A stretch of DNA of 64,000 nt, from contig CBDHHA010000008.1 in NCBI GenBank assembly GCA_965263255.1, forward strand, positions 4,549,987 to 4,613,986. Reading direction: 5' to 3'. Positions within the stretch are counted from its first letter, which is position 1; every line of letters begins with the position of its first letter. Source of the stretch: Bryobacterales bacterium (lineage in GTDB: Bacteria > Acidobacteriota > Terriglobia > Bryobacterales > UBA6623). The notes beneath the pieces are model-generated. The model worked only from the letters and a program-made list of their open reading frames with translations. It did no database searches and had not been told where the DNA came from. A program made the translations under genes and the position numbers. Below are positions 5,223 to 56,385 of the stretch, piece by piece.

Positions 5223-6941
5223 GTGCCGCGCCTGGATGCTACGCGCGCTTGCTTCCGGGCGGCTGCGTGCCTGATCGTGCTGCCGCCCGCAGCGCCCGGC
5301 GCGCAGGCGGCGTTCGTGGATGTCGCCGCCGAGTCCGGGCTGACGGACATCTTCTACTGCGGCAGGGATGACAGCAAGGACTTCATCCTCGAGGCCATAG
5401 GATCCGGCGTGGCGCTGCTCGACTACGACCGTGACGGATTCCTGGATGCGTTCTTCGTCACGTCTAGCACCTTCGAGGGATTCCCGCCCGGCCGGGCCCC
5501 CAGCAACCACCTGTACCGCAACAACGGCGACGGCACGTTCGCGAACGCCACGGACCGTGCCGGCCTCCGGATGTCCGGGTGGGGACAGGGCGCATGCGTC
5601 GGCGACGTTGACAACGACGGCTTCGACGATCTGTTCGTCACCTACTTCGGAGAGAACCGCCTCTACCGGAACAGCGGCCGCGGGACGTTCGCCGACGTGA
5701 CGCTGCAATCGGGTCTCGGTCCGGAACGGCGCTGGTCGACCGGTTGCGCCTTCCTGGACTACGATCGCGACGGGCATCTCGATCTGTTCGTGGCGAACTA
5801 CCTAGTCTTCGACAGGGACCGCATTCCCGCAAGGGGCAGCGCCCCCTCCTGCCAGTGGCAGGGGCAGGCCGTGGCGTGCGGTCCCCGCGGGCTGCCTGGA
5901 GAGACGAACCAACTGTTCCGCAATCTCGGCGACGGCCTGTTTGCCGACGTTTCCGAGCAGTCGGGTGTCTCCAGCGTCCAAGGCCGATACTCGTTGTCCG
6001 TGACACCGCTGGACTACAACGCTGACGGCTGGCCGGATGTCTACGTGGCCGTCGATTCGCAGGCCAGCATACTGTTTGAGAACAAGGGCGACGGCACTTT
6101 CGAGGATGTCGGGGTATTCGCAGGTGCGGCCCTCGACGAGCACGGGGACGTGCAAGCCGGGATGGGAACGGCAGCTGTCGACATCGATGGCGACGGACGC
6201 CTCGACATCGTGAAGACCAACTTCATGGGGGAGACTTCGAACATCTACTTGAACTCCCCGGCAGCGTCCTTCGACGACCGGGTGCATGCGATGGGCGCGG
6301 GAATCAGCGCGGGCTACATGGGCTGGGGCGTGGCGGCCCTCGATTTCGACCACGACAGCTGGCCGGACATCCTTGTCGCGAACGGCCACACGTACCCGGA
6401 AATCGAGGGCCTCGTTCCGGGCAATCCGTACCGGCAGGGCCGGCTGCTGTACAGGAATGCCGGGGGGCGTCGACTCGAGCCCGTCGAGCCGCCGCAGGGA
6501 TCCGCGATACTGGCCAGGCACTCCGGCCGGGGCGTTGCCGCCGGGGATTACGACAATGACGGCGACGTGGACGTGTTCATAAGCAACATGAACGAGCGTC
6601 CGAGCCTTCTCCGTAACGACTCCAGCCTTGCAGGCGGCTTCCTCTCCATTCGGCTGATTGGTACCGCGTCGAATCGCAGCGCGATCGGAGCGCGCGTGAC
6701 AGTGAAGGCAGGATCCAGAGTCCAGGTCCAGGAGGTGCGGTCGGGATCGAGTTTCATGTCGAGCAACGACCTTAGGCTGCACTTCGGATTAGGGGGCAGT
6801 GCTGTAGTCCGGGAGGTTGTCGTAGACTGGCTGTCCTCCTCGCCCCGCGAAACACTCGAAAACCTCGCAGCGAACCAGTTCCTTGAGGTCACCGAGGGAG
6901 AGGGCATCACGGCCCGCTCGCCGGGAGGCACAGCACAGTGA
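5223..6941 (+). CDS. CRTAC1/ASPIC-UnbV family FG-GAP (VCBS) repeat protein, paralog 1
   Basis: Repeated LYRNxGDGTFxDV and DxDxDG motifs (DYDRDGFLD, DVDNDGFDD). The C-terminal UnbV/ASPIC signature is NRSAIGARVTVKAGSRVQVQEVRSGSSFMSSNDLRLHFGLG. I start it at GTG 5223, just after the TPR stop, which gives the Sec-like leader VPRLDATRACFRAAACLIVLPPAAPGAQA. A start at ATG 5154 would overlap the TPR gene by 62 nt. Confidence 0.8.
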   Translation: MPRLDATRACFRAAACLIVLPPAAPGAQAAFVDVAAESGLTDIFYCGRDDSKDFILEAIGSGVALLDYDRDGFLDAFFVTSSTFEGFPPGRAPSNHLYRNNGDGTFANATDRAGLRMSGWGQGACVGDVDNDGFDDLFVTYFGENRLYRNSGRGTFADVTLQSGLGPERRWSTGCAFLDYDRDGHLDLFVANYLVFDRDRIPARGSAPSCQWQGQAVACGPRGLPGETNQLFRNLGDGLFADVSEQSGVSSVQGRYSLSVTPLDYNADGWPDVYVAVDSQASILFENKGDGTFEDVGVFAGAALDEHGDVQAGMGTAAVDIDGDGRLDIVKTNFMGETSNIYLNSPAASFDDRVHAMGAGISAGYMGWGVAALDFDHDSWPDILVANGHTYPEIEGLVPGNPYRQGRLLYRNAGGRRLEPVEPPQGSAILARHSGRGVAAGDYDNDGDVDVFISNMNERPSLLRNDSSLAGGFLSIRLIGTASNRSAIGARVTVKAGSRVQVQEVRSGSSFMSSNDLRLHFGLGGSAVVREVVVDWLSSSPRETLENLAANQFLEVTEGEGITARSPGGTAQ

Positions 6942-8680
6942 CCGCGGCCTGGTCCCGCCGGCGGATCCTGCGCCTGGCCGCTGCCGCGGCCACTCCCGGA
7001 TGGGGTGCCCTGGGCAGCCGTGCCCTCCTCGGCGCCCCGCCGACAGGGCCCTATGGCGTGCAGTTCGTGGACGTGGCGAGGGATGCCGGCCTGACCGACA
7101 CGGTCTACTACGGAAGCAGCGAGCGGGTGAAGTACATCGTCGAGGCGAACGGTTGCGGCGTCGCCTTCTACGACTACGACAACGATGGCTGGCCCGACCT
7201 GTTCGTCCTCAACGGCACCCGTCTCGAGGGCTTTGAAGATGGTCTCGAGCCCTCGAACCGCTTGTACCGGAACAATCGCGACGGGACTTTCACAGACGTT
7301 ACCGAGGAAGCCGGGCTCGTCCGGTCCGGCTGGGCGAACAGCGTCTGCATCGGTGACTTCGACAACGACGGCAATGATGACCTGTTCGTCACCTACTGGG
7401 GGCAGAACGTTCTGTACCGCAATAACGGGGACGGGACGTTCACGGACGTGACCGCGGACGCTGGACTCGGCGGCTTCCCGGATCGCTGGAACGCGGGGGC
7501 GACGTTCATCGATTACGACCGCGACGGGTATCTGGACCTCTTCGTCTCGAACTATGTGGACGTCGACCTCGAGAGGATCCCGCTGCCCGGCCAGGGCAAC
7601 AACTGCGAGTGGAAGGGCGTCCCCGTCTTCTGCGGGCCCCGCGGAATGCCGGGAACGAAGAACTACCTTTACCGGAACAACGGAGACGGCACGTTCTCGG
7701 ACGTGAGCGAGGAGGCGGGGATCCACAGCCCGCACGGCTACTACGGCATGACCGCTCTCGTGACGGATGTCGACGAGGACGGATGGCCCGACATCTACGT
7801 GGCGTGCGACTCGACTCCCAGCATTCTCTATCGAAACAACCGGGACGGGACATTCACCGACATCGCGGTCGAGTGCGGCGTCGCTTACAGCGAGGACGGG
7901 CGCGAGCAGGCCGGGATGGGGCTTGCAACCGGGGACTACGACCGGGACGGAAGGCTGGACATCGTCAAGACGCTCTTCGCCGACGAGATGCCGGCCCTGT
8001 ACCGGAACTTCGGCAATGGCAGGTTCGCGGACATGTCTGTCGCGGCGGGCCTGCACGTCGTGACGCAGCACATCCAATGGGGCACCGGTCTCGTGGACTT
8101 CGACAACGACGGCTGGCAGGACCTGTTCTATGCGGTCGGGAACCTGTTTCCCCGCGTCGAGCAGTTCAATCCGCGCTACCCGTACCGCGGCCCGCGATTC
8201 CTGTTCCGAAACATGCGGGACGGTTCGTTCTCGAACGTCACCGATACCTGCGGCCCGGGGCTGACGACGCCCCATTCGAGCCGCGGATGCGCCTTCGGTG
8301 ACTTCGACAACGACGGAGACCTGGACATCCTGGTCATGAACATGAACCAGCCGCCGTCGCTGATTCGCGCCGATGTTTCCACAGGCCATCACTGGCTCAA
8401 GGTCAAGCTCGTCGGCGTCGAGTCGAATCGCACGGCGATCGGCGCGCGCGTGGATCTGCGGTCGGGCGGCAGATGGCAGTCTCAGGAGGTGCAGAGCCAG
8501 TCCAGCTACTACTCCGTCAACGACCTTCGGCTCCACTTCGGCCTGGGTGCCGAGTCGAAGGCAGACGAGATCAGAATCCGCTGGCCCAACGGAAGGCGCG
8601 AGCAGCTCGCCACCGTCGCGGCTGACCGGGTCGTGTACATCGAGGAGGGCAGGGGAATCGTGCGATCGGAGGAATTCTGA
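6938..8680 (+). CDS. CRTAC1/ASPIC-UnbV family FG-GAP repeat protein, paralog 2
   Basis: The GTG start overlaps the upstream stop (GTGA). Twin-arginine leader MTAAWSRRRILRLAAAAA. It has six LYRNNxDGTFTDV-type repeats. The C-terminus is NRTAIGARVDLRSGGRWQSQEVQSQSSYYSVNDLRLHFGLG. Confidence 0.85.
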   Translation: MTAAWSRRRILRLAAAAATPGWGALGSRALLGAPPTGPYGVQFVDVARDAGLTDTVYYGSSERVKYIVEANGCGVAFYDYDNDGWPDLFVLNGTRLEGFEDGLEPSNRLYRNNRDGTFTDVTEEAGLVRSGWANSVCIGDFDNDGNDDLFVTYWGQNVLYRNNGDGTFTDVTADAGLGGFPDRWNAGATFIDYDRDGYLDLFVSNYVDVDLERIPLPGQGNNCEWKGVPVFCGPRGMPGTKNYLYRNNGDGTFSDVSEEAGIHSPHGYYGMTALVTDVDEDGWPDIYVACDSTPSILYRNNRDGTFTDIAVECGVAYSEDGREQAGMGLATGDYDRDGRLDIVKTLFADEMPALYRNFGNGRFADMSVAAGLHVVTQHIQWGTGLVDFDNDGWQDLFYAVGNLFPRVEQFNPRYPYRGPRFLFRNMRDGSFSNVTDTCGPGLTTPHSSRGCAFGDFDNDGDLDILVMNMNQPPSLIRADVSTGHHWLKVKLVGVESNRTAIGARVDLRSGGRWQSQEVQSQSSYYSVNDLRLHFGLGAESKADEIRIRWPNGRREQLATVAADRVVYIEEGRGIVRSEEF

Positions 8681-8755: not shown

Positions 8756-11401
8756 TCAGGGCTCTCCGGTCAGCATGGCGGCGATTCTGCGGAACCCGTT
8801 CGCCTGCGCCAGCGAGAGCGCCGTAGCGCCTTCCGCATTGCGCGCGTCCGCGTCCGCGCCGCGCTCGAGCAGTTCCTGCACGACCAGCGACTGCCCGCGG
8901 GAAACGGCAACCAGCAGGGCGGTGAAGCCTCGCGAGTCCGAGACGTCGAGGCTCGCTCCGCCATCGGCGAGGATGCGGACTCCCGAGAGAGTTCCCGAGG
9001 CCGCGGCCAGCATGAGTGGCGTGACGCCGTCGGGTCGCGCGCGATTCGGGTCGGCGCCCCCCGCGAGCAGCACTTCGATCGACTCCGCGTGGCCATTCGC
9101 GGCCGCGAACATCAGCGCCGAGGTTCCCTCCGCGTCAACCAGGTCGGGGTCCGCGCCGCCCGCCAGCAGCGTCGCGGCAGTCGTGGAGAATCCCTCGGAG
9201 CCGGCCATCATTAGCGCGGTTCGCCCGTCGGGCGTCCTGGCGTTCGGCGCGGCACCGCTGTCTAGCAGGACTTCCACGGTTTCCCTGTGATTCTTCCCGG
9301 CCGCCAGCATCAGGGCCGTCCCTCCGTCCGGTGCCGTGGCATCGGTAGCCGCCCCGTTCGCGAGTAGCTCGGCCACGGCCGCGGCGTGACCCCGGTCGGC
9401 CGCCAGCATCAGGGCCGTGGTCCCGCCGGGATCGCGGCTGTTCACGCGGGCCCCGGCGTCCACTAGGGTCTTGATCCTGTCCGCGCGTCCAGTCGCCGCG
9501 ACGATCCGGAGCAGCTCGTCCAGATCCTCGTCCGCTCCCGCGCGCTCAAGGTCGAGGGCGGCTTCGTCGAACCCCGCCAGAGCCGCATGGACCAGCGCCG
9601 TCCGCCCCCGGTCATCGGAGTCGTCCGGCCGCGCGCCGTTGTCGAGCAGGAACCGGATCGCCTCGGCCTGTCCGGCACCCGCTGCCAGCATCAGGGCCGT
9701 CCTCCCGCCCGACATCCGGGCGCCGACATCCGCGCCCGCCTGCACCAGCGTTTCGAGAGCCACCGTGTCTCCCCTGGCGGCCGCCAGCATCAAGGCCGTG
9801 CGTCCGCCGTCCCCTGCCGGGTCCACGCTGGCTCCCGCTGCAATCAGCGTGCGCAGCATCGAATGGTCGCCCTGGGAAACCGCGATCATCACTGCTGTCG
9901 TCCCGTCGCCAGCCTGGGCGTCAACATCCGCCCCGGCCTCGATCAGGATCCCTGCCATCGTAGGCAGCCCCTTTGAGACGGCAAGCACCAGCGGCGTCCT
10001 GCCGCCCTCGCCCCTCGCGTTCGGGTCGGCGCCTGCCTGTAGCAGCGTTCGAACAATGGAGGTCTGCCCCTCCCAGGCGGCCATCAGCAGCGGCGTCCAG
10101 CCTACCTGGCTCGCCAAGGCAGCGTCGGCCCCTGCCCGCAAGAGCGCCTCGACGATCGCCCGGTGGCCTTCTGCCGATGCCAGCATCAGCGCGGTGACGC
10201 CGCCTCCGTGGATTGTCCCGCTCTGGACGGCGACGGGAACACCTTCCCTGCTCTGCCGGTTGACTTCGGCCCCCTCTGCGATCAGGAGACGAACTGTGCC
10301 CAAGTGCCCGCGCAGCGAAGCGATCATCAGGGCGGTCAGGCCCCTGCTGTCGCTGATGCCGGGATCCGCTCCCCGGCCGAGGGCGGTCGCCGCTTCTTCG
10401 GTCCTGCCGACCCTCGCTGCGAACAGGAGGTCCTCGGACGGTGTCGATGAAGCCCCTCGAGCCCGGAGTTCCTCGACCGTCTCGACGCGGCCGAGCAGCG
10501 CGGCCTGGACAAGAGCCGATTCCCCGAGGGCGTCGACCGCGTCGATCTCGGCTCCGTGCGCCAGCAGGGTGCGGACAATGTCCGTGTGGCCGTTCGACGC
10601 CGCGAACATGAGCGCCGTCCGACCGTCGATCGATGCGTGGCGGACACCCGCTCCCGCACTCAGGAGCGAGGCCACGGTGCGCCCTGCTCCCTTCGACGCC
10701 GCGAGCATGAGGGCCGTCACCCCTCCCAACGGGACGTCGAAGTCGCCGGCGGAGATATTGGCCCCCTCGGCACCGCGGGCATCCGCGTGGGCTCCCGCTT
10801 CCAGGAGCGCGTCGACGACCGGGAGATGGCCTCTGAAGGTTGCGGCCATCAGCGGGGTCTGGCCCGAGTCGTCCGCTTGGTTCGGATCCGCTCCGGCGCG
10901 CAGCAGTGCCTGCACGACCGAATCCTGCCCGCCGGCTGCTGCGAGCAGGAGAGCGGTCTCGCCGCCGTCGCCGCGGACATCGACGCTCGCGGAATCCAGC
11001 AGGGTTGGGACTGCTCCGGTGCGGTTTCCGGCAATGGCGACCATCAGCGCCGTCTGCCCGCTGTCGTTCTGCGCGTCGGCTCGGGCACCCGCATCGAGCA
11101 GCCTTCGGAGGGTCCTCTCATGGCCTGCCGATGCGGCGGCCATCAGGGCCGAGGTGCCTCGATCGTCGACTGCGTGAACGTCCGCGCCCTCGGCGAGCAA
11201 GGCCTCTACTGCTTCGAGACCGCCGCCCAGCGCGGCCAGCATCAGGGGAGTCGTGCCGCGGTCGTTCCGGGCGTCAACGTCCGCTCCCTGCTCGATCAGC
11301 GTGCGGACCCGGAGGCTGTCACCCGCCTGCGAGGCTCCCAGCAGTGCCGTGTCGACGGCCGTCCGTTGCGCGTGCGCCGGTGCAACGTGCCCTAGCGCCA
11401 C
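8756..11401 (-). CDS. Giant ankyrin-repeat protein (881 aa from GTG 11401, made almost entirely of ~33-aa ANK units)
   Basis: The consensus G(x)TALMxAAxxGHxxxVxxLLxxGADxxAxD repeats from the N- to the C-terminus, roughly two dozen units. The true start may be CTG 11422 (see findings). Confidence 0.85.
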   Translation of the reverse strand: MALGHVAPAHAQRTAVDTALLGASQAGDSLRVRTLIEQGADVDARNDRGTTPLMLAALGGGLEAVEALLAEGADVHAVDDRGTSALMAAASAGHERTLRRLLDAGARADAQNDSGQTALMVAIAGNRTGAVPTLLDSASVDVRGDGGETALLLAAAGGQDSVVQALLRAGADPNQADDSGQTPLMAATFRGHLPVVDALLEAGAHADARGAEGANISAGDFDVPLGGVTALMLAASKGAGRTVASLLSAGAGVRHASIDGRTALMFAASNGHTDIVRTLLAHGAEIDAVDALGESALVQAALLGRVETVEELRARGASSTPSEDLLFAARVGRTEEAATALGRGADPGISDSRGLTALMIASLRGHLGTVRLLIAEGAEVNRQSREGVPVAVQSGTIHGGGVTALMLASAEGHRAIVEALLRAGADAALASQVGWTPLLMAAWEGQTSIVRTLLQAGADPNARGEGGRTPLVLAVSKGLPTMAGILIEAGADVDAQAGDGTTAVMIAVSQGDHSMLRTLIAAGASVDPAGDGGRTALMLAAARGDTVALETLVQAGADVGARMSGGRTALMLAAGAGQAEAIRFLLDNGARPDDSDDRGRTALVHAALAGFDEAALDLERAGADEDLDELLRIVAATGRADRIKTLVDAGARVNSRDPGGTTALMLAADRGHAAAVAELLANGAATDATAPDGGTALMLAAGKNHRETVEVLLDSGAAPNARTPDGRTALMMAGSEGFSTTAATLLAGGADPDLVDAEGTSALMFAAANGHAESIEVLLAGGADPNRARPDGVTPLMLAAASGTLSGVRILADGGASLDVSDSRGFTALLVAVSRGQSLVVQELLERGADADARNAEGATALSLAQANGFRRIAAMLTGEP

Positions 11402-49979: not shown

Positions 49980-51149
49980 TCAGGCGACCGACAGGGTGTC
50001 GGAGTCCCAGCCGATCTTCCGGCCCTCCCGGATCGACAGGTTTGCCAGCTGGACGATGAGTGCCGCCTGGAATCCCTTGTCCATGGTCGCCCGAGGGGAC
50101 TCGCGCGTCCGCACGCAGTGCAGGAAGTTCATCACGTGATCGATCGTGGCCTGGGCGAACCCGCCCGGCTGCTCCTTCGAGAACGACGCCGTCTCCGGGG
50201 CGTCCCTGGGGTACACCCGGAGGAACTCCCGGCCGATGTCCATTCGGGCAATCGAGCCGTCGTACGCATTGAGCTGGTCCGCGCGCATCTCGTAGCGCAT
50301 CGCGTTGTAGTTGATGGTGAAGATCGCCAGGAATCCCTGCGGGTATTCGGCGGCCACGACCACGGATTCGGGCTGGTCCATCCCTTCGACATGGGGCCGC
50401 AGCGACGTCGCATTGACGGATACCGGATAGCCAGCGTCCATGATCAGGTGGATCGAGTCGAAGATATGGCAGCCTTGGTCCTGCGCGATTCCCCCCGAGT
50501 ACGCCGACAGGCTCCGCCAGTTGAAGAAGACGAGAGGGTCTTCGGGAACGTCAGGGGCAGGGCCTAGCCAGCCCTTCCAGTCGATGGGCCCCCTGAACGG
50601 CGCCCGCCGGGGCTCGGTCCGCGAGTTGAGCCAGTAGGTCCGTACCATGCGCACGATGCCGAGATCCCCTCCCCGGCGCATGTCGCGCGCCTCGAGGTAG
50701 AGGTTGTAGCTGCGGCGTTGCATCCCGACCTGCACGATCCGATCAGACTCGCGCCACGCTTCCACCAGTTCCTTGCCCTCTTGCGGCGTGTGGCACAGCG
50801 GCTTCTCCACGTACACGTCCTTGCCGGCAGCCATCGCGTCCAGCGTCATGCGATGGTGCCAGTGCTCGGGCGTCGCGATCAGCACCGCGTCCACGTCACG
50901 GTCTTCCAGGACCTTGCGGTAGTCGCGGTATGCGACGGTTCCCGGGCCCGCGGCGGACAGGCCTGCCTCGAGGTTGGGTTCGTAGACGTCGCATACTCCA
51001 TGGACCTTGAGGTTCGGGTCGCGCTTGAACTCGGACATTACCCGGCGGCCCCTCCCGCCGGATCCGATCACACCCAGGCGGACTGCATCGGACGGCGATT
51101 GAGCGAGCGCGGCCCCGGCGGAGGATAGGAAGAAGATGCGGCGGTTCAC
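49980..51149 (-). CDS. Gfo/Idh/MocA-family oxidoreductase with a Tat signal
   Basis: GTG 51149 gives VNRRIFFLSSAGAALAQS. The Rossmann motif is LGVIGSGGRGRR, and EKP is present (DVYVEKPL). Confidence 0.8.
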   Translation of the reverse strand: MNRRIFFLSSAGAALAQSPSDAVRLGVIGSGGRGRRVMSEFKRDPNLKVHGVCDVYEPNLEAGLSAAGPGTVAYRDYRKVLEDRDVDAVLIATPEHWHHRMTLDAMAAGKDVYVEKPLCHTPQEGKELVEAWRESDRIVQVGMQRRSYNLYLEARDMRRGGDLGIVRMVRTYWLNSRTEPRRAPFRGPIDWKGWLGPAPDVPEDPLVFFNWRSLSAYSGGIAQDQGCHIFDSIHLIMDAGYPVSVNATSLRPHVEGMDQPESVVVAAEYPQGFLAIFTINYNAMRYEMRADQLNAYDGSIARMDIGREFLRVYPRDAPETASFSKEQPGGFAQATIDHVMNFLHCVRTRESPRATMDKGFQAALIVQLANLSIREGRKIGWDSDTLSVA

Positions 51150-51537
51150 GGCACCGAGGATTCTCGCACAGAAGGGTGTGGGAGCCGGCAGCCACTTAGG
51201 TGCTTCCCGGCTTGCGCAACGCGGAGAAGGCCGAACGGCGACGAGCGGCGGACGCCCCCGTTCCAGACGCGCCCTTCCCAATGCCTGCTAGGCTTCCATA
51301 CGCCATCCGTCACTGTCGGCGCATGAGTTGGACGGGATGCCTCGGGGCGAATGCCGGACGGAACGGCAAGCTTGGGTAAGGACTAGAATGAGTTCGAGCG
51401 ACGCCGGGCTCATTGGACACCGTTCCGGATGAGCCAGGGCTACTTCCGTGGAGCAGCCGGATGCAAGGCCGGTCGCAGCGTAAGAATCCTGCATACGTCG
51501 TTACGGGACGTTGCCAAGGCACGAAGTGGAGTCGAGT

Positions 51538-52656
51538 ATGGCCGGACATCAGGACCGGATTACCGAAATCAAGGTCTCCAACTATCGGAGTATCGGGCAA
51601 GAGCAGCAGGTCGAACTCGGGCGGCTGACAGTACTCGTCGGACCCAACGGTTCTGGCAAGAGCAACCTAGTCGATGTGCTCAGCTTCGTGCGCGATGCAA
51701 TGCACAATGGCCTCTCGGCCGCAATCACGGGCCGGGGTGGCATCGACGCTGTGCGGCGCAAGAGTGCAGGGCGAGGGCGTCCCTGTAACGTAACCATCCA
51801 GCTATCGGTCAGCCTTGAGTCCGGACAGGGCTCCTACGAATTCGAGATCTCAGGGGACCGGAGAGAGGAGTATCGCGTCAAGTCGGAATCGGCGTTCGTT
51901 CGTCTGAGCGATGGGCCGCAGCGGTTCAGGGTCGAAAAGGGAATCTGGCAGGGACCGGAGGGGCTTGAGCCGAAGATCAGTGACACAGGGCTCGCGCTTC
52001 CCGCTGTGGCTGGGGATGACCGATTCCGTCCTTTGTTTGAATTGATATCACGAGTGGTTATCTATGCCATCTTCCCCGACACGCTGCGAGAACCCCAGAA
52101 ACCCAACCCCGAGAAGCCGATGCACAGGCACGGCGAAAATTGGGTCTCAATTCTGCGGAATCAGGAAGTGTCCACGTGGAAGCCAGAACTCGTTGCCGGG
52201 CTCAAGTATCTCATCGGCGATGTAAGCGACATTAGGGTCAATAGAGTTGCGAATTTCCTGGTTGCGCAGTTCCGACACGGGCAGGGGAGGTGGTTTGATG
52301 CGGGCCAGGAGTCTGACGGCACGCTTCGGGTTGCGGGAATCCTAACCGCCCTGTTGCAAGAGCCGCCACTGCCACTCGTCGGTATCGAGGAGCCTGAACT
52401 GACAATTCACCCTGGAGCGCTTCCAATGTTGATGGACTACCTGCGGCAGGCCAGTGACATATCTCAGGTGCTCCTTACCTCCCACAGCCCCGAGCTGTTG
52501 GATCTTGTCGAAACGGATGAAGTCCGAGTGGTGGCCCGAGCGAATGGCGCAACGCGAATCCGTCCTATGGCGGGGCACCAGAGGGATGTTGTCAAGAGCC
52601 GACTGCTGACCCTCGGCGAGCTCATGACGACTGAAGGCCTATTGCAGCAATTGTGA
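51538..52656 (+). CDS. ABC/SMC-type AAA ATPase (AAA_15/AAA_21-like), partner of the DUF4276 gene
   Basis: ATG 51538 lies 6 nt after GGAG. The opening IKVSNYRSIG precedes Walker A GPNGSGKSN. Signature-like ESDGTLRVAGIL, Walker B LVGIEEPE, H-loop LTSHSPELL. Its stop overlaps the next gene's start (GTGA). Confidence 0.8.
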   Translation: MAGHQDRITEIKVSNYRSIGQEQQVELGRLTVLVGPNGSGKSNLVDVLSFVRDAMHNGLSAAITGRGGIDAVRRKSAGRGRPCNVTIQLSVSLESGQGSYEFEISGDRREEYRVKSESAFVRLSDGPQRFRVEKGIWQGPEGLEPKISDTGLALPAVAGDDRFRPLFELISRVVIYAIFPDTLREPQKPNPEKPMHRHGENWVSILRNQEVSTWKPELVAGLKYLIGDVSDIRVNRVANFLVAQFRHGQGRWFDAGQESDGTLRVAGILTALLQEPPLPLVGIEEPELTIHPGALPMLMDYLRQASDISQVLLTSHSPELLDLVETDEVRVVARANGATRIRPMAGHQRDVVKSRLLTLGELMTTEGLLQQL

Positions 52657-53312
52657 GAATCCTGGTAGTGATGAATAAATCGAAGAAGGTATATGTTCTT
52701 GTAGAGGGCCACGGAGAGGTAGCGTCAGTACAGAACCTTCTCACCAGAATTTCCAGTGAACAGGACGTTCACTTTGCGTGGGCGAAACCCATTAGATGGA
52801 AGAACCTCCACAAGCAAAGTGGGTGCCAGCGTGGGGCGGATTTCATTCGGGCCAAGCCCGATGCGGAGGCCATGCTCGTTCTCCGGGATGGAGACCGCGG
52901 CTGCCCCAAGCAACTGGGACCAGAAATGGCGGATTGGATGCGCAAAGCGAGTCTTCCCTTCCCGTCGGCCGTCGTCTTGCTGCACCCGGAGTACGAGGTT
53001 CTCTTCCTGCCATGCCTCGACCTCATTGCGGGAAGGCTGCTTGACGGTCGTCCTGGCCTCTCTCCGGGAACGGTGTGGGATCGACCGACCTGGGAGTCGA
53101 AACGAGGAGTCAAGGAGTGGCTGACTCGCAACTATCCAAAGAATCGATGCTATAGGGAAACTCTTGACCAACTCCCAATGACACGGATGGTGGATCTTGA
53201 ACGCCTAAGGAAAGCCAATGTGCCGTGTTTCGGAACACTGGAACGGGCCGTGCAATTCCTGGCTCGGAGCTCGGATGCGGGAGCGGTGTATCCCGCAATG
53301 CCCGAGCCGTGA
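52653..53312 (+). CDS. DUF4276-like protein with Toprim-like motifs
   Basis: The strand-1 glutamate is in KKVYVLVEGHGE. The DxD motif is in MLVLRDGDRGCP. A later acidic motif is LLHPEYEVLFL. The start is GTG 52653 or ATG 52671. The DUF4276 assignment comes from memory of the family pattern and needs an HMM check. Confidence 0.7.
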   Translation: MRILVVMNKSKKVYVLVEGHGEVASVQNLLTRISSEQDVHFAWAKPIRWKNLHKQSGCQRGADFIRAKPDAEAMLVLRDGDRGCPKQLGPEMADWMRKASLPFPSAVVLLHPEYEVLFLPCLDLIAGRLLDGRPGLSPGTVWDRPTWESKRGVKEWLTRNYPKNRCYRETLDQLPMTRMVDLERLRKANVPCFGTLERAVQFLARSSDAGAVYPAMPEP

Positions 53313-53555
53313 ACGAATGTGCGCCGCGCGTAGCGCATTGATTCCGCAACGTGCTCCTAGGCAAAGCGGATTCGCGCGTCAATGGACGTTCGTGGGCAGC
53401 CGGCTCATGGCTTGCCTCACTGCCCTCCCGATGTGTAGTCCATAGCCTGGCCGGCCAGCCAATTCGCCCAGGGTCGCACCCATGGTCGTACACTGTCTTC
53501 GGACTGATGGACGGCCCGTCGCCACGAATGGTCCCGGGCCTCGCGAGCTAGCGAA

Positions 53556-55286
53556 GTGCTATCCAAGCTGAGGATCCGCAACTTCAAGCGTTTCGACCAG
53601 CTCGAGGTGGCACTCGGGAACCCGGTCTTGCTCCTTGGGCCCAATGACTCGGGCAAGTCCACCGTGATGCAGGCGCTCTCGCTCTGGGAGACCGGCCTCC
53701 GGCGTTGGCTGGAACGGCATTCCAGGGCACGGGCACCGGCGGACCGGCCCGGGGTGACCCTCAACCGGCGTGATCTCGTCTCGATGCCCGTCCCCAGGGC
53801 CAACCTTCTCTGGAAGGACCTTCGCTTGCGCGACGTTGGCGGGAGTGATGGCTGGCAAGCAACCGAGCACGTCAGGATCGAGATCGTCGTCGAGGGCACT
53901 GGCGGGGGCAGCGCGTGGGAGTGCGGTCTGGAGTTCGACTACGCAAACGAGGACTTGATCTACTGCCGTCCGCTCCGAGCCGACGATGGCCCGGACATCC
54001 GGAGAATCCCTGTACCCGAGCAGGCTGCCGAGGTTCGCACCGCATTCCTGCCCTCGATATCCGGGCTCGCACCGAGCGAGACATTGCTGGCGCCCGGCAC
54101 CGTCGGTGTCCGCATTGGCGAGGGCCGCACCGCCGAGGTGCTGCGGAATCTGTGCCTGGCCGTGTGGGAGCGCCAGCCCGAGAACTGGGACAAGATAGTC
54201 GGGCATATCCGCTCCCTGTTCGGAGCGACCGTCGACCCGCCCCGCTACCAGGTCGAGCGAGGCGAAATCACAGTCGCGTTCCGTGACGGCGACCTGCTAA
54301 TGGACATCTCCTCAGCCGGGCGGGGCTTCCACCAGCTGCTGCTGGTGCTCTCATTCATGTACGCTCGCCCGGGTACGGTGCTGCTGCTGGACGAGCCCGC
54401 TGCACATCTGGAGCCCTCGCGCCAGCGCCAGTCGTATCGGGCGATTCGCGAGGTCTCGCGGGAGACCGGCAGTCAGGTCATCATCTCGACGCATTCCGGG
54501 GTGCTGCTGGACGAGGCCCTCGATCAGGACCTCGTGCTCGCCTTCGTGGGAAAGCCCCGCCAGATTGGCAGGCACTACGGCGAGCGTGCCGCGCAGGCGC
54601 TCCGCGAGATTGGTTTCGAGGACTGCATGCAGGCGGAACAGGCGGGCTGGGTGCTCTACATTGCCGGCCCGGCGGACCTCTCCGCGCTGCGGGCGTTCGC
54701 TCGCCGCCTCGGCCACGAGCGGGCGGTTGCAGCGCTTCAGCGCCCGTTCGTCCGCTACCTCGCGAATTCCGGTTCCGCTGCCGAGCGCCATTTTGGGGCG
54801 CTCGCGACCGTCGTGCCGGAAGTCCGGGGCTGCGCGCTCTTGGACAGCCGGAACTCTGATGACAGTGCCGGCAGTAGTCCCAACGGGCCCGCATTACTTC
54901 GCTGGAGCAGGGGCCGGCTCGAGGACTACGTGCTGACGCCCGCGGCGCTTGAAGCATACGCAGTCCGCGAAGCACGCTCTCAGGCTGTCGGCCCACTCTT
55001 CGCTCCAGACCAGGCCGCGACGCGGCGCCAGGCCATGAGGGAAGCGATCGATTCCGTAGGGGACCTCCAAGGGGAGGACTTGGCCGGGTCGCGGGCTGCC
55101 CATGGCGGGTGGGCTGCGCTCGAGCCGGTCTTCCGGCTCTACAGGCTGAAGCTCGGTCTCGGTGCAGATCTTCCGCTTCCGGATGCGGCGGATCTGGTGG
55201 AGGGCCTCCCCGACAGCGAGATTGATGCCGAGATCCGCGAGAAGCTCGACGCGATCGTTCTCGCGGCGGAGGGTGTGGGCGATTGA
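53556..55286 (+). CDS. OLD-family-like fusion of an N-terminal ABC-type ATPase and a C-terminal Toprim-like domain with degenerate motifs
   Basis: GTG start. The opening LRIRNFKRFD precedes Walker A GPNDSGKST. Signature-like SSAGRGFHQLL, Walker B VLLLDEPAAHLEP, H-loop ISTHSG. In the C-terminal part, WVLYIAGPADLSALRAF parallels the OLD/GajA motif VLLIEGPSEKILFEKV, followed by CALLDSRNSDD and LEDYVLTP, which resembles IENYLL. Confidence 0.7.
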   Translation: MLSKLRIRNFKRFDQLEVALGNPVLLLGPNDSGKSTVMQALSLWETGLRRWLERHSRARAPADRPGVTLNRRDLVSMPVPRANLLWKDLRLRDVGGSDGWQATEHVRIEIVVEGTGGGSAWECGLEFDYANEDLIYCRPLRADDGPDIRRIPVPEQAAEVRTAFLPSISGLAPSETLLAPGTVGVRIGEGRTAEVLRNLCLAVWERQPENWDKIVGHIRSLFGATVDPPRYQVERGEITVAFRDGDLLMDISSAGRGFHQLLLVLSFMYARPGTVLLLDEPAAHLEPSRQRQSYRAIREVSRETGSQVIISTHSGVLLDEALDQDLVLAFVGKPRQIGRHYGERAAQALREIGFEDCMQAEQAGWVLYIAGPADLSALRAFARRLGHERAVAALQRPFVRYLANSGSAAERHFGALATVVPEVRGCALLDSRNSDDSAGSSPNGPALLRWSRGRLEDYVLTPAALEAYAVREARSQAVGPLFAPDQAATRRQAMREAIDSVGDLQGEDLAGSRAAHGGWAALEPVFRLYRLKLGLGADLPLPDAADLVEGLPDSEIDAEIREKLDAIVLAAEGVGD

Positions 55287-55500
55287 AGGCATAGCCGCCA
55301 TGCGCCGCTCCCAGCGCGATTCCCCGGTCCAAGCGCGACACCGGGACGGGTCGAGAGCACGTGGCGAACCAACCGCGCACCAAGCAGGGGACCAACCGCG
55401 GGTGCCGCAGCGTGGGGCGGCGGCTCCGAAGTCGCACCGAGCAGACCATGCGAGGGCAGCCTGACGCCAACCTCTGCGAACAGGCCCCACAATAAGAGAT

Positions 55501-56385
55501 ATGGCTGCGGCAGACCCGTCCTCCAGCGAAACGCCCGTTTCCCGCAAGGCGACGCTGCTGATCACCCTAGTGGCCGTGGCCAGCATCGTCATTCCGTTCT
55601 GGTTCTGGATGGACACGTGGTTCGGAAAGCGCCTCACCGAGGAGCAGATCGGCCAGTACCTGGTTGACGAAGATCGCCCTCGCCGTGCGCAGCATGCGCT
55701 AGCACAGATCTCCCAGCGGATGACTTCCGGAGACGAGTCCGTCAGGGTCTGGTACCCGAGAATCCTGGAATTGGCGCGTCACCAGCTGCCCGAGCTCCGC
55801 GTCACGGTTGCCTGGCTGATGGGAGACGACCCGTCCAGCGAGGAGTTCCACGACGCCCTCCGGGTGCTGGTTGCCGACCCCCACCCCCTGGTACGCCGCA
55901 ACGCCGCGCTCGCTCTGGCGAGATTCGGCGATTCCAGCGGCCGTGAAGAGATGCGCGCGATGCTGCAACCCTACCGCGTTGCCTCGGATCACTCCGGCAT
56001 TGTCACCAATCGCCTCGAGCCTGGCGACGCATTCGAGGCCGGCGCGCTTCTGGTTCGGATCCAGCCGGAAGACGACGCGGACCCGTTGGACGTTCGCGCG
56101 CCCGTGCCCGGGATCGTCGACCGCCAGCTGCGCGCTGATGGCGACCGCGTCACAACGGGCGACGAAGTGACGGTCGTCCGCCCCGAGTCGACGCATATCT
56201 TGCAAGCCCTCGCGGGGCTCTATCTAGTGGGTACTTCCGAGGACATTGGCCTCATCCAGCCGTACCGGAGGCCGAGAAGCGGCCTCAGCGCCCAGATACC
56301 CCAGCAAGCCGCGCTGACGCTGGCCGGAATCCGCGAGCGCTTGGCGGGCGGCTCCCCGGTACCGGCTGCGGGAAGCCAGCTCTAA
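55501..56385 (+). CDS. Membrane-anchored HEAT-repeat protein with a C-terminal barrel-sandwich-hybrid (lipoyl/HlyD-like) motif
   Basis: It has one N-terminal TM helix (LLITLVAVASIVIPFWFWM) and HEAT-like units (DPHPLVRRNAALALARFGDSSGREEM). The segment GIVTNRLEPGDAFEAGALLVRI...VRAPVPGIVDRQLRADGDRVTTGDEVTVV resembles a barrel-sandwich hybrid. Confidence 0.55.
   Translation: MAAADPSSSETPVSRKATLLITLVAVASIVIPFWFWMDTWFGKRLTEEQIGQYLVDEDRPRRAQHALAQISQRMTSGDESVRVWYPRILELARHQLPELRVTVAWLMGDDPSSEEFHDALRVLVADPHPLVRRNAALALARFGDSSGREEMRAMLQPYRVASDHSGIVTNRLEPGDAFEAGALLVRIQPEDDADPLDVRAPVPGIVDRQLRADGDRVTTGDEVTVVRPESTHILQALAGLYLVGTSEDIGLIQPYRRPRSGLSAQIPQQAALTLAGIRERLAGGSPVPAAGSQL

Follow-up and report, generated by a model that had tools for sequence, protein, structure and literature searches.

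The window analysed here is a stretch of 64 000 nucleotides (nt) from a Bryobacterales bacterium (assembly GCA_965263255.1, contig CBDHHA010000008.1). Two adjacent genes on its forward strand are the subject of this paper. The first, at 51538..52656, encodes an ATP-binding cassette (ABC)-type ATPase; the second, at 52671..53312, encodes a small protein of the DUF4276 family. Full-length matches to the PADLOC models HEC-01A and HEC-01B identify the pair as the two components of HEC-01, a catalogued candidate defence system. An initial annotation, made from the sequence, had described the locus as a split module of an ATPase and a Toprim-like protein; the open reading frames, motifs and coordinates that it gave, among them a GTGA at 52653-52656, are all present in the sequence. 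The two genes probably form a horizontally acquired HEC-01 cassette with a Toprim-like metal site, transcribed as one unit, whose most likely role is defence against phages or mobile genetic elements in the manner of PARIS, OLD and Gabija.

HEC-01 is the Hma-embedded candidate 01 of PADLOC-DB v2 and has been described as an ABC ATPase with a TOPRIM protein (Payne et al., bioRxiv 10.1101/2024.01.29.577857). The window locus is an ordinary copy of this already catalogued system, and the arrangement of ABC ATPase and TOPRIM protein is not new. The same two proteins are encoded in the same order (A then B), on the same strand and adjacent to each other (4-nt overlap or 14-nt gap), and the locus belongs to HEC-01 and to Pfam DUF4276 by every testable measure of membership. 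It differs in context: the window copy is not embedded in Hma or in another recognized defence system, but stands alone between housekeeping genes, beside a gene of the OLD family. It also differs in sequence, being 27-71% identical to the other members seen; the experimentally tested representatives are different sequences.

The HEC-01A ATPase

The ATPase gene runs from an ATG at 51538, with a GGAG ribosome-binding site 8 nt upstream, to a TGA at 52654-52656. It encodes 372 amino acids (aa), and the exact protein is present in public gene calls. Its proposed identity as an ABC-type ATPase holds: the protein matches Pfam AAA_21 (2e-34) and AAA_15 (4e-16). The PADLOC-DB match is to HEC-01A model PDLC04178 (E = 8.9e-100, 332.5 bits) and covers residues 6-368 of 372 and profile positions 7-380 of 399. 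Relatives were drawn from a scan of related loci, limited to one genome per species, in which 119 relatives of the small protein were found and 80 loci fetched. Among 68 ATPase homologues aligned from these loci, the Walker A motif (G.NG.GKSN), a signature-like motif (SDGTLR), the Walker B motif (EEPE) and the H-loop (T.HSP) are each kept in at least 95%. HEC-01A is predicted to be the sensor and regulator subunit of the system.

The HEC-01B protein: family and conserved residues

The DUF4276 identity of the small protein is borne out by the Pfam search that the initial annotation had proposed. The match to DUF4276 (PF14103) scores 41.9 bits (gathering score 30.2) and spans profile positions 1-190 of 192. 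PADLOC-DB returns HEC-01B model PDLC04196 (E = 5.6e-31, residues 12-205, profile positions 3-193 of 197) and, behind it, PDLC04200 (4.1e-20); a search of NCBIfam gave no match. A full scan of 1.84 billion representative proteins yielded 935 relatives. Conservation was read from an alignment of 80 full-length relatives at 27-50% identity, a diverse set in which all 80 members match HEC-01B models of PADLOC and 76 match Pfam DUF4276.

Residues are numbered here from the ATG start, which gives a protein of 213 aa; the numbering of the 219-aa form that begins at GTG, used by the initial annotation, is higher by 6 and is given in brackets. The motifs VYVLVEGHGE, LRDGDRG and HPEYE are all present in the window protein, and the acidic residues singled out earlier prove to be the conserved ones. 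E12 (E18), the adjacent G13 (G19), D73 (D79) and E109 (E115), the second glutamate of PEYE, are conserved in 80 of 80 relatives. Position D75 (D81) is aspartate in 54, glutamate in 25 and asparagine in 1, and is thus acidic in 79 of 80; the first glutamate of the PEYE motif, E107 (E113), is kept in 69. Conservation of the acidic motifs across 80 homologues implies that these features are not due to chance. Further residues are conserved as well: Y161 and Q167 in every member, C78 in 79, K148 in 77 and P79 in 72. HEC-01B is predicted to be a Toprim-type, metal-dependent nuclease effector.

The gene junction

Two start codons are available to the second gene. The ATG at 52671 lies 14 nt past the ATPase stop. 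A GTG at 52653, in frame with it, forms part of the tetranucleotide GTGA (52653..52656, forward strand), in which this alternative start overlaps the TGA of the ATPase gene. The initial annotation had taken the overlap as a sign of translational coupling. Three independent assemblies carry public gene calls that begin at ATG 52671 and contain the exact 213-aa protein. Homologues of the protein start 2-6 residues ahead of the VEG motif; the ATG start, which places the glutamate at position 12, therefore fits better than the GTG start, which places it at position 18. ATG 52671 is the likely start on this reading of the sequence, and the 4-nt overlap is possible in this copy but not favoured.

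The tight junction itself is a conserved trait of the family, and to that extent the earlier proposal stands. An in-frame start candidate of the form NTGA occurs at -4 in 28 of the approximately 72 related loci listed, and in several of the closest relatives (L004-L007 and L009) the overlapping codon is the sole start candidate. In nearly all of the listed loci, the first candidate start lies no more than about 20 nt from the ATPase stop.

Neither candidate start of the window gene is preceded by a strong ribosome-binding site. This could suggest an inert, decaying remnant that has no current function, as could the fact that the cassette is a foreign insertion without demonstrated activity. 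Decay is nevertheless highly improbable. Both open reading frames are full length relative to their homologues, all invariant family residues and ATPase motifs are retained, and identical proteins are found on several independent assemblies.

The fold of HEC-01B

An AlphaFold2 model of the small protein, built on the 80-sequence alignment, has a mean predicted local distance difference test score (pLDDT) of 96.3 and a predicted template modelling score of 0.92. In its N-terminal half, strands and helices alternate: β1 (5-11), α1 (14-30), β2 (35-37), α2 (49-60), β3 (67-73), α3 (79-92), β4 (99-104) and α4 (108-119). The C-terminal half is helical. In this model E12 directly follows β1, D73 and D75 close β3, and E107 and E109 come after β4. 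The acidic residues of HEC-01B are thereby placed where Toprim domains carry a glutamate, a DxD and further acidic residues. The succession of strands and helices in the model and the placement of the motifs give a Toprim-like picture; the structural comparison that had been proposed for this protein stops short of a significant Foldseek match to a Toprim structure.

Several comparisons fail to support a Toprim assignment. In a Foldseek search of the Protein Data Bank (PDB), the model found no match with E <1e-3, and there is no Toprim among the top 50. The top matches are generic three-layer alpha/beta structures: succinyl-CoA synthetase beta, lumazine synthase and the PIWI MID domain. Foldseek against BFVD gave nothing significant; the best whole-length match there, to an RloB-like protein, is weak (template modelling (TM) score 0.48 over 210 columns, E = 0.011). 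Further down that list is a DNA primase core. The profile of the DUF4276 alignment, searched against PDB sequences, retrieved no Toprim and only designed repeat or Rossmann proteins. In hhalign, comparison of the DUF4276 profile with the Toprim domain of P2 Old gave a probability of 1.6%, with the VEGxxE motif alone aligned; P2 Old entered this comparison as a single sequence, a homologue search with its C-terminus having yielded only five fragments. The same comparison with the C-terminal domain of the neighbouring OLD-like family gave a probability of 0.6% and was rejected as a sign of specific kinship.

Weak cross-matches to Toprim-type families nonetheless recur among the 80 members. In Pfam they are to OLD-like_TOPRIM (five members, best 0.027), RloB (four, best 0.024) and DUF3226 (twelve); in PADLOC, to mad4 (seven), AriB (two, best 0.0056) and AbiLii (one). 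Published work is more explicit. HEC-01B has been reported to resemble TOPRIM proteins and to share the metal-binding site of BpOLD (Payne et al., bioRxiv 10.1101/2024.01.29.577857), and DUF4276 and RloB have been newly assigned to Toprim, whose E and DxD residues they carry (2025 NAR Menshen paper, PMC12065111). Since Foldseek gives no significant Toprim match, assignment of the fold depends on topology, on where the motifs lie and on this published work. The Toprim evidence obtained here, namely the modelled topology, motif placement and recurrent weak cross-matches, is weaker than would be wanted, and the explicit structural claim comes from the literature.

Co-occurrence and distribution

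The two genes are obligate partners. An ATPase homologue (34-74% identity) lies directly upstream of the DUF4276 gene, on the same strand, in all 75 testable loci; the other five fetched loci are cut by a contig end. The two-gene unit proposed by the initial annotation is thus a general feature of the family. Its hosts are scattered over Acidobacteriota, Myxococcota, Planctomycetota, Latescibacterota, Desulfobacterota, Gammaproteobacteria, Chloroflexota, Actinomycetota, Bacteroidota, Verrucomicrobiota and Melainabacteria. The genes that follow differ from locus to locus: across 66 loci, the downstream neighbours represent 75 different Pfam families, mostly housekeeping. They include only two R subunits of type I restriction systems, a single N6 methylase and two additional AAA_21 ATPases. 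Differing downstream neighbours indicate that the ATPase/DUF4276 pair moves as a self-contained unit.

Some related loci depart from the simple pair. A Desulfobulbaceae metagenome-assembled genome (L029) carries two ATPase homologues (approx. 50% identity) and two DUF4276 matches, at approximately 6844-7950 and 9761-10867, a layout that resembles a tandem duplication of the cassette. In four others (L032, L044, L026 and L081) the ATPase or DUF4276 matches are broken across reading frames; these could be frameshifted pseudogenes or long-read assembly errors.

A compact two-gene unit that moves into unrelated contexts, with a tightly coupled gene junction, might also be a selfish addiction cassette resembling a toxin-antitoxin (TA) system. 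The nuclease would be the toxin and the ATPase its restraint, and the cassette would persist by post-segregational killing with no net defence benefit. The Pfam text for AAA_21, 'putative AbiEii toxin, Type IV TA system', seems to favour such a role; that label, however, stems from abortive-infection systems, which are themselves defence systems. Close relatives of the pair were not found on plasmids or phages: plasmid carriage is limited to three distant (28% identical) matches in Streptomyces, and phage records and IMG/VR gave none. Immunity, moreover, is the role of the related ATPase-Toprim pairs PARIS, AbiL and MADS3-4 (PMC11464382). An addiction cassette is accordingly unlikely, and the defence reading is preferred to it.

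Composition and insertion of the cassette

The lower GC content that had been taken to suggest horizontal acquisition is confirmed, and the insertion itself can be traced. GC is 0.57-0.58 over 51750-53250, with flanks of 0.64-0.70 on both sides. At third codon positions the difference is wider: GC content there (GC3) is 0.67 in the ATPase gene and 0.62 in the DUF4276 gene, against 0.80-0.89 in all neighbouring genes. Empty sites were located through the genomic contexts of homologues of the downstream OLD-like gene (53556-55286). Four related genomes are informative (L084/L085, L089, L091 and L092), and the OLD-like proteins encoded there are 56-68% identical to that of the window. In these genomes the order is SSF transporter, Na/sulfate symporter, Gfo/Idh/MocA oxidoreductase and then, after approximately 150-210 nt, the OLD-like gene. 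The matching interval in the window measures 2385 nt.

Homology to the empty sites in blastn stops at 51171 and resumes at 53557. The right boundary can be drawn a little more closely. A short motif, TACACTGT, at approximately 53487-53494, upstream of the OLD-like gene, is common to the window and to two of the empty-site genomes, L085 and L089, which places the end of the insertion ahead of it. On the forward strand the inserted segment therefore includes, besides the two genes, a 5' part at 51172..51537 and a 3' part at 53313..53480, the latter with an approximate right end. The comparison indicates that the HEC-01 pair came as a segment of about 2.3 kb (roughly 51172-53480) with nothing else aboard. 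The pair was inserted by horizontal transfer between the Gfo/Idh/MocA oxidoreductase gene and a resident OLD-family gene.

A promoter belonging to the cassette presumably lies in the 5' segment; searches of 51172..51537 gave no sigma-70-like promoter, Rfam family or tRNA. The insertion shows neither target-site duplication nor terminal inverted repeat, and no terminator, tRNA, Rfam element or mobility gene was found with it.

Evidence on a role in defence

The experimental case for a defence role of HEC-01 is slender and mixed. In one test, a HEC-01 representative protected Escherichia coli B against at least one of the phages T4, T5 and T7 (PMC12881386). Other observations count against a defence role: the HEC-01 representative of Payne et al. 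gave no protection against a BASEL-derived phage panel (bioRxiv 10.1101/2024.01.29.577857), the surveyed HEC-01 loci lie mostly outside recognizable defence islands, and no close relative of the pair occurs in phage records or IMG/VR contigs.

The pair could instead belong to host DNA metabolism, as an accessory module for repair or recombination similar to RecF and RecR, in which an SMC-like ABC ATPase works with a partner of Toprim fold. The combination of RecF, an ABC ATPase, with RecR, a Toprim-fold protein, is an ancient one. The ATPase has weak matches to RecF and SMC N-terminal models, the neighbours of HEC-01 loci are mostly housekeeping genes, and the negative result for one tested HEC-01 (10.1101/2024.01.29.577857) would agree with such a function. 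The matches, however, do not extend beyond residues 8-51, the region of Walker A, and score well short of the curated cut-offs. The pair is patchy in distribution, compositionally foreign and absent at the same site in four close genomes, all of which is hard to square with a core role in repair. The acidic catalytic set is complete and invariant, and the other representative did protect against phage (PMC12881386). A repair module is very unlikely. It and the other rival accounts weighed in this paper (addiction cassette, inert relic and three-gene system) all rank lower than defence.

The neighbouring OLD-family gene

The gene downstream of the pair (53556-55286, forward strand) encodes a fused OLD-family protein of 576 aa, in which an ABC ATPase is joined to a Toprim-like domain. 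This assignment comes from Foldseek against the PDB, using a model with a pLDDT of only 76. The best match is Ts OLD of Thermus scotoductus (6p74, E = 5.9e-12, 645 columns), followed by GajA (8u7i and 8x5i, approx. 677 columns). Pfam and PADLOC recognize the ATPase part alone and have no model for the C-terminal domain, whose secondary structure follows a Toprim-style β-α-β-α-β-β order.

This domain has lost its catalytic glutamate and most of its other acidic residues. YLEGSTD of canonical relatives corresponds to YIAGPAD in the window protein, FDRLE (found in most of them) to ALLDSRN, and REIENY (also in most) to GRLEDY. The Toprim glutamate of YLEGSTD is kept in 24 of 24 canonical relatives. 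All 10 members of the clade that includes the window protein have A, G, N, S or R instead, and other acidic positions are eroded. In the window protein, two near-invariant positions of its ATPase part are altered as well (D282A and E315G).

The gene nevertheless keeps a fixed syntenic position beside the Gfo/Idh/MocA oxidoreductase gene in five related genomes, while the DNA that flanks it varies. Within the region compared (49980-56385 in the window), the window has the HEC-01 pair upstream and L092 has a TonB-dependent receptor. In L091 a 390-aa open reading frame and a 970-aa AAA_16/TPR protein lie downstream of the OLD-like gene, and in L089 a 1962-aa DUF4011/AAA_11/AAA_12/DUF3320 helicase lies by it. 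The region may be a small integration hotspot, a variable locus anchored by a nuclease-dead OLD homologue. The motif TACACTGT stands approximately 65-75 nt upstream of the OLD-like start in three genomes (the window, L085 and L089), whose intergenic regions are otherwise unalignable; it may be a promoter or operator element.

The proximity of the two loci raises the question of a three-gene system, in which the HEC-01 pair would supply an active nuclease in trans to the adjacent ATPase with its dead Toprim domain. The OLD-like gene lies on the same strand after a gap of 243 nt, its product is without the catalytic glutamate, and its surroundings, which differ from genome to genome, contain further large NTPase genes. 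This proposal was considered and rejected as barely credible. No OLD-like homologue is present at any of 80 other HEC-01 loci, and in four related genomes the OLD-like gene occupies the same syntenic position without HEC-01. Its composition is native (GC3 0.80), and the conserved upstream motif suggests a promoter of its own.

The fixed position of the OLD-like gene, despite loss of the Toprim glutamate, suggests that its product may be an exapted, nuclease-dead sensor or anchor. That the HEC-01 pair might cooperate with such an anchor of a variable immunity locus, or compensate for it, in a hybrid system with shared triggers or effectors, is a most doubtful extension of this idea.

Other features near the OLD-like gene concern its own surroundings and family. 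A HEAT-repeat protein is encoded at 55501-56385 on the forward strand (HEAT_2, 1.8e-8, with a weak HlyD_3-like match at the C-terminus). Its gene follows the OLD-like gene in the window and in L084/L085, lies further downstream in L091 and, at its 3' end in the window, overlaps the convergent lpxC gene by 4 nt. One homologue of the OLD-like protein (P0362, 765 aa) has an extra HsdM_N domain (PF12161, the N-terminal domain of type I methylases), which hints at a link of the OLD-like family to restriction-modification systems.

Comparison with related ATPase-Toprim systems

The initial annotation had likened the locus to PARIS, built with a different Toprim family. In PARIS the ABC ATPase AriA is encoded ahead of AriB, a DUF4435 Toprim tRNase. 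The window pair shares this split, ATPase-then-Toprim layout and an ATPase of the AAA_15/21 type, and probably also the logic, in which a sensor ATPase first holds a nuclease back and then lets it go. The effectors differ: AriB is a DUF4435 Toprim, whereas that of the window belongs to DUF4276. The comparison agrees with the literature on MADS3-4 and HEC-01 (PMC11464382), and for that reason the arrangement is not the novelty that had been suggested. Membership of PARIS itself was rejected: the small protein has no AriB or DUF4435 match at E up to 1, and the ATPase is nearer to HEC-01A, scoring 121.5 bits with the best AriA model (one of generic AAA_21 length) against 332.5 bits with HEC-01A.

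Another counterpart is the mad3-mad4 pair of MADS, the methylation-associated defence system, which has been grouped with ABC ATPase and TOPRIM systems (PMC11464382, PMC12065111). As in the window pair, MAD3 is an AAA_21-type ATPase and MAD4 a DUF4276 protein. The window locus is not a MADS locus. Its ATPase reaches 103.7 bits with the NCBIfam MAD3 model NF047739, below the cut-off of 420, its DUF4276 protein has no mad4 match, and no other mad genes (methyltransferase etc.) lie nearby; the neighbours are transporters, an oxidoreductase, the OLD-like ATPase, the HEAT-repeat protein and LpxC.

The OLD family (P2 Old, Ts and Bp OLD, and GajA of Gabija) likewise combines an ABC ATPase with a Toprim nuclease, and has in common with the window DUF4276 protein a VEGxxE/D motif after strand 1 and an acidic pair after strand 3. 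The nuclease GajA nicks DNA. OLD proteins and GajA, however, have both domains in a single polypeptide and a Toprim of the PF20469 type; the window pair has them in separate genes, with a Toprim of the DUF4276 family. RloB-like proteins and the AbiL system (AbiLi ATPase with AbiLii) resemble the window pair in that a small, stand-alone Toprim-type protein is paired with an AAA_21-type ATPase. The likeness is limited by the weakness of the structural match (E 0.011, TM 0.48) and by sequence cross-matches in only a few family members.

Proposed mechanism

The model with most support is taken from related ABC ATPase-Toprim systems. In PARIS, a hexamer of AriA sequesters AriB and frees it on sensing a phage protein, whereupon AriB cleaves tRNA (PMC11464382, PMC12409363). 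P2 OLD forms an inactive tetramer that becomes a tRNase once the tetramer is destabilized (bioRxiv 10.64898/2026.07.10.737580). By analogy, the window pair probably works like PARIS, AbiL or MADS3-4, and its complex formation, trigger, substrate and defence phenotype would follow from that model. (i) The HEC-01A and HEC-01B genes would be transcribed as a single unit. (ii) An oligomer of the HEC-01A ATPase would keep the HEC-01B nuclease inactive and sense a cue of infection, such as a phage protein or aberrant nucleic acid. (iii) An ATP-dependent rearrangement of HEC-01A would then free or activate the Toprim nuclease. (iv) HEC-01B would cut tRNA or DNA through a site formed by E12, D73, D75 and E109, halting the infection. 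The conserved, helical C-terminal half of HEC-01B, with K148, Y161 and Q167, probably contributes to binding of the substrate or of the ATPase.

Significance

The window locus adds a further environmental example, probably from a high-GC bacterium of soil type, to a candidate defence system that is already catalogued. A tractable representative of HEC-01 would be worth having, and the window locus is not special in that respect. Its value lies elsewhere. In the lineages surveyed, HEC-01 loci are mostly solitary and not embedded in defence islands. The 80-sequence conservation map nominates residues for mutagenesis: E12, D73, D75, E107/E109, C78-P79, K148, Y161 and Q167. The clean insertion, seen against the empty sites of related genomes, indicates that the two genes travel together in a self-contained cassette of approximately 2.3 kb.

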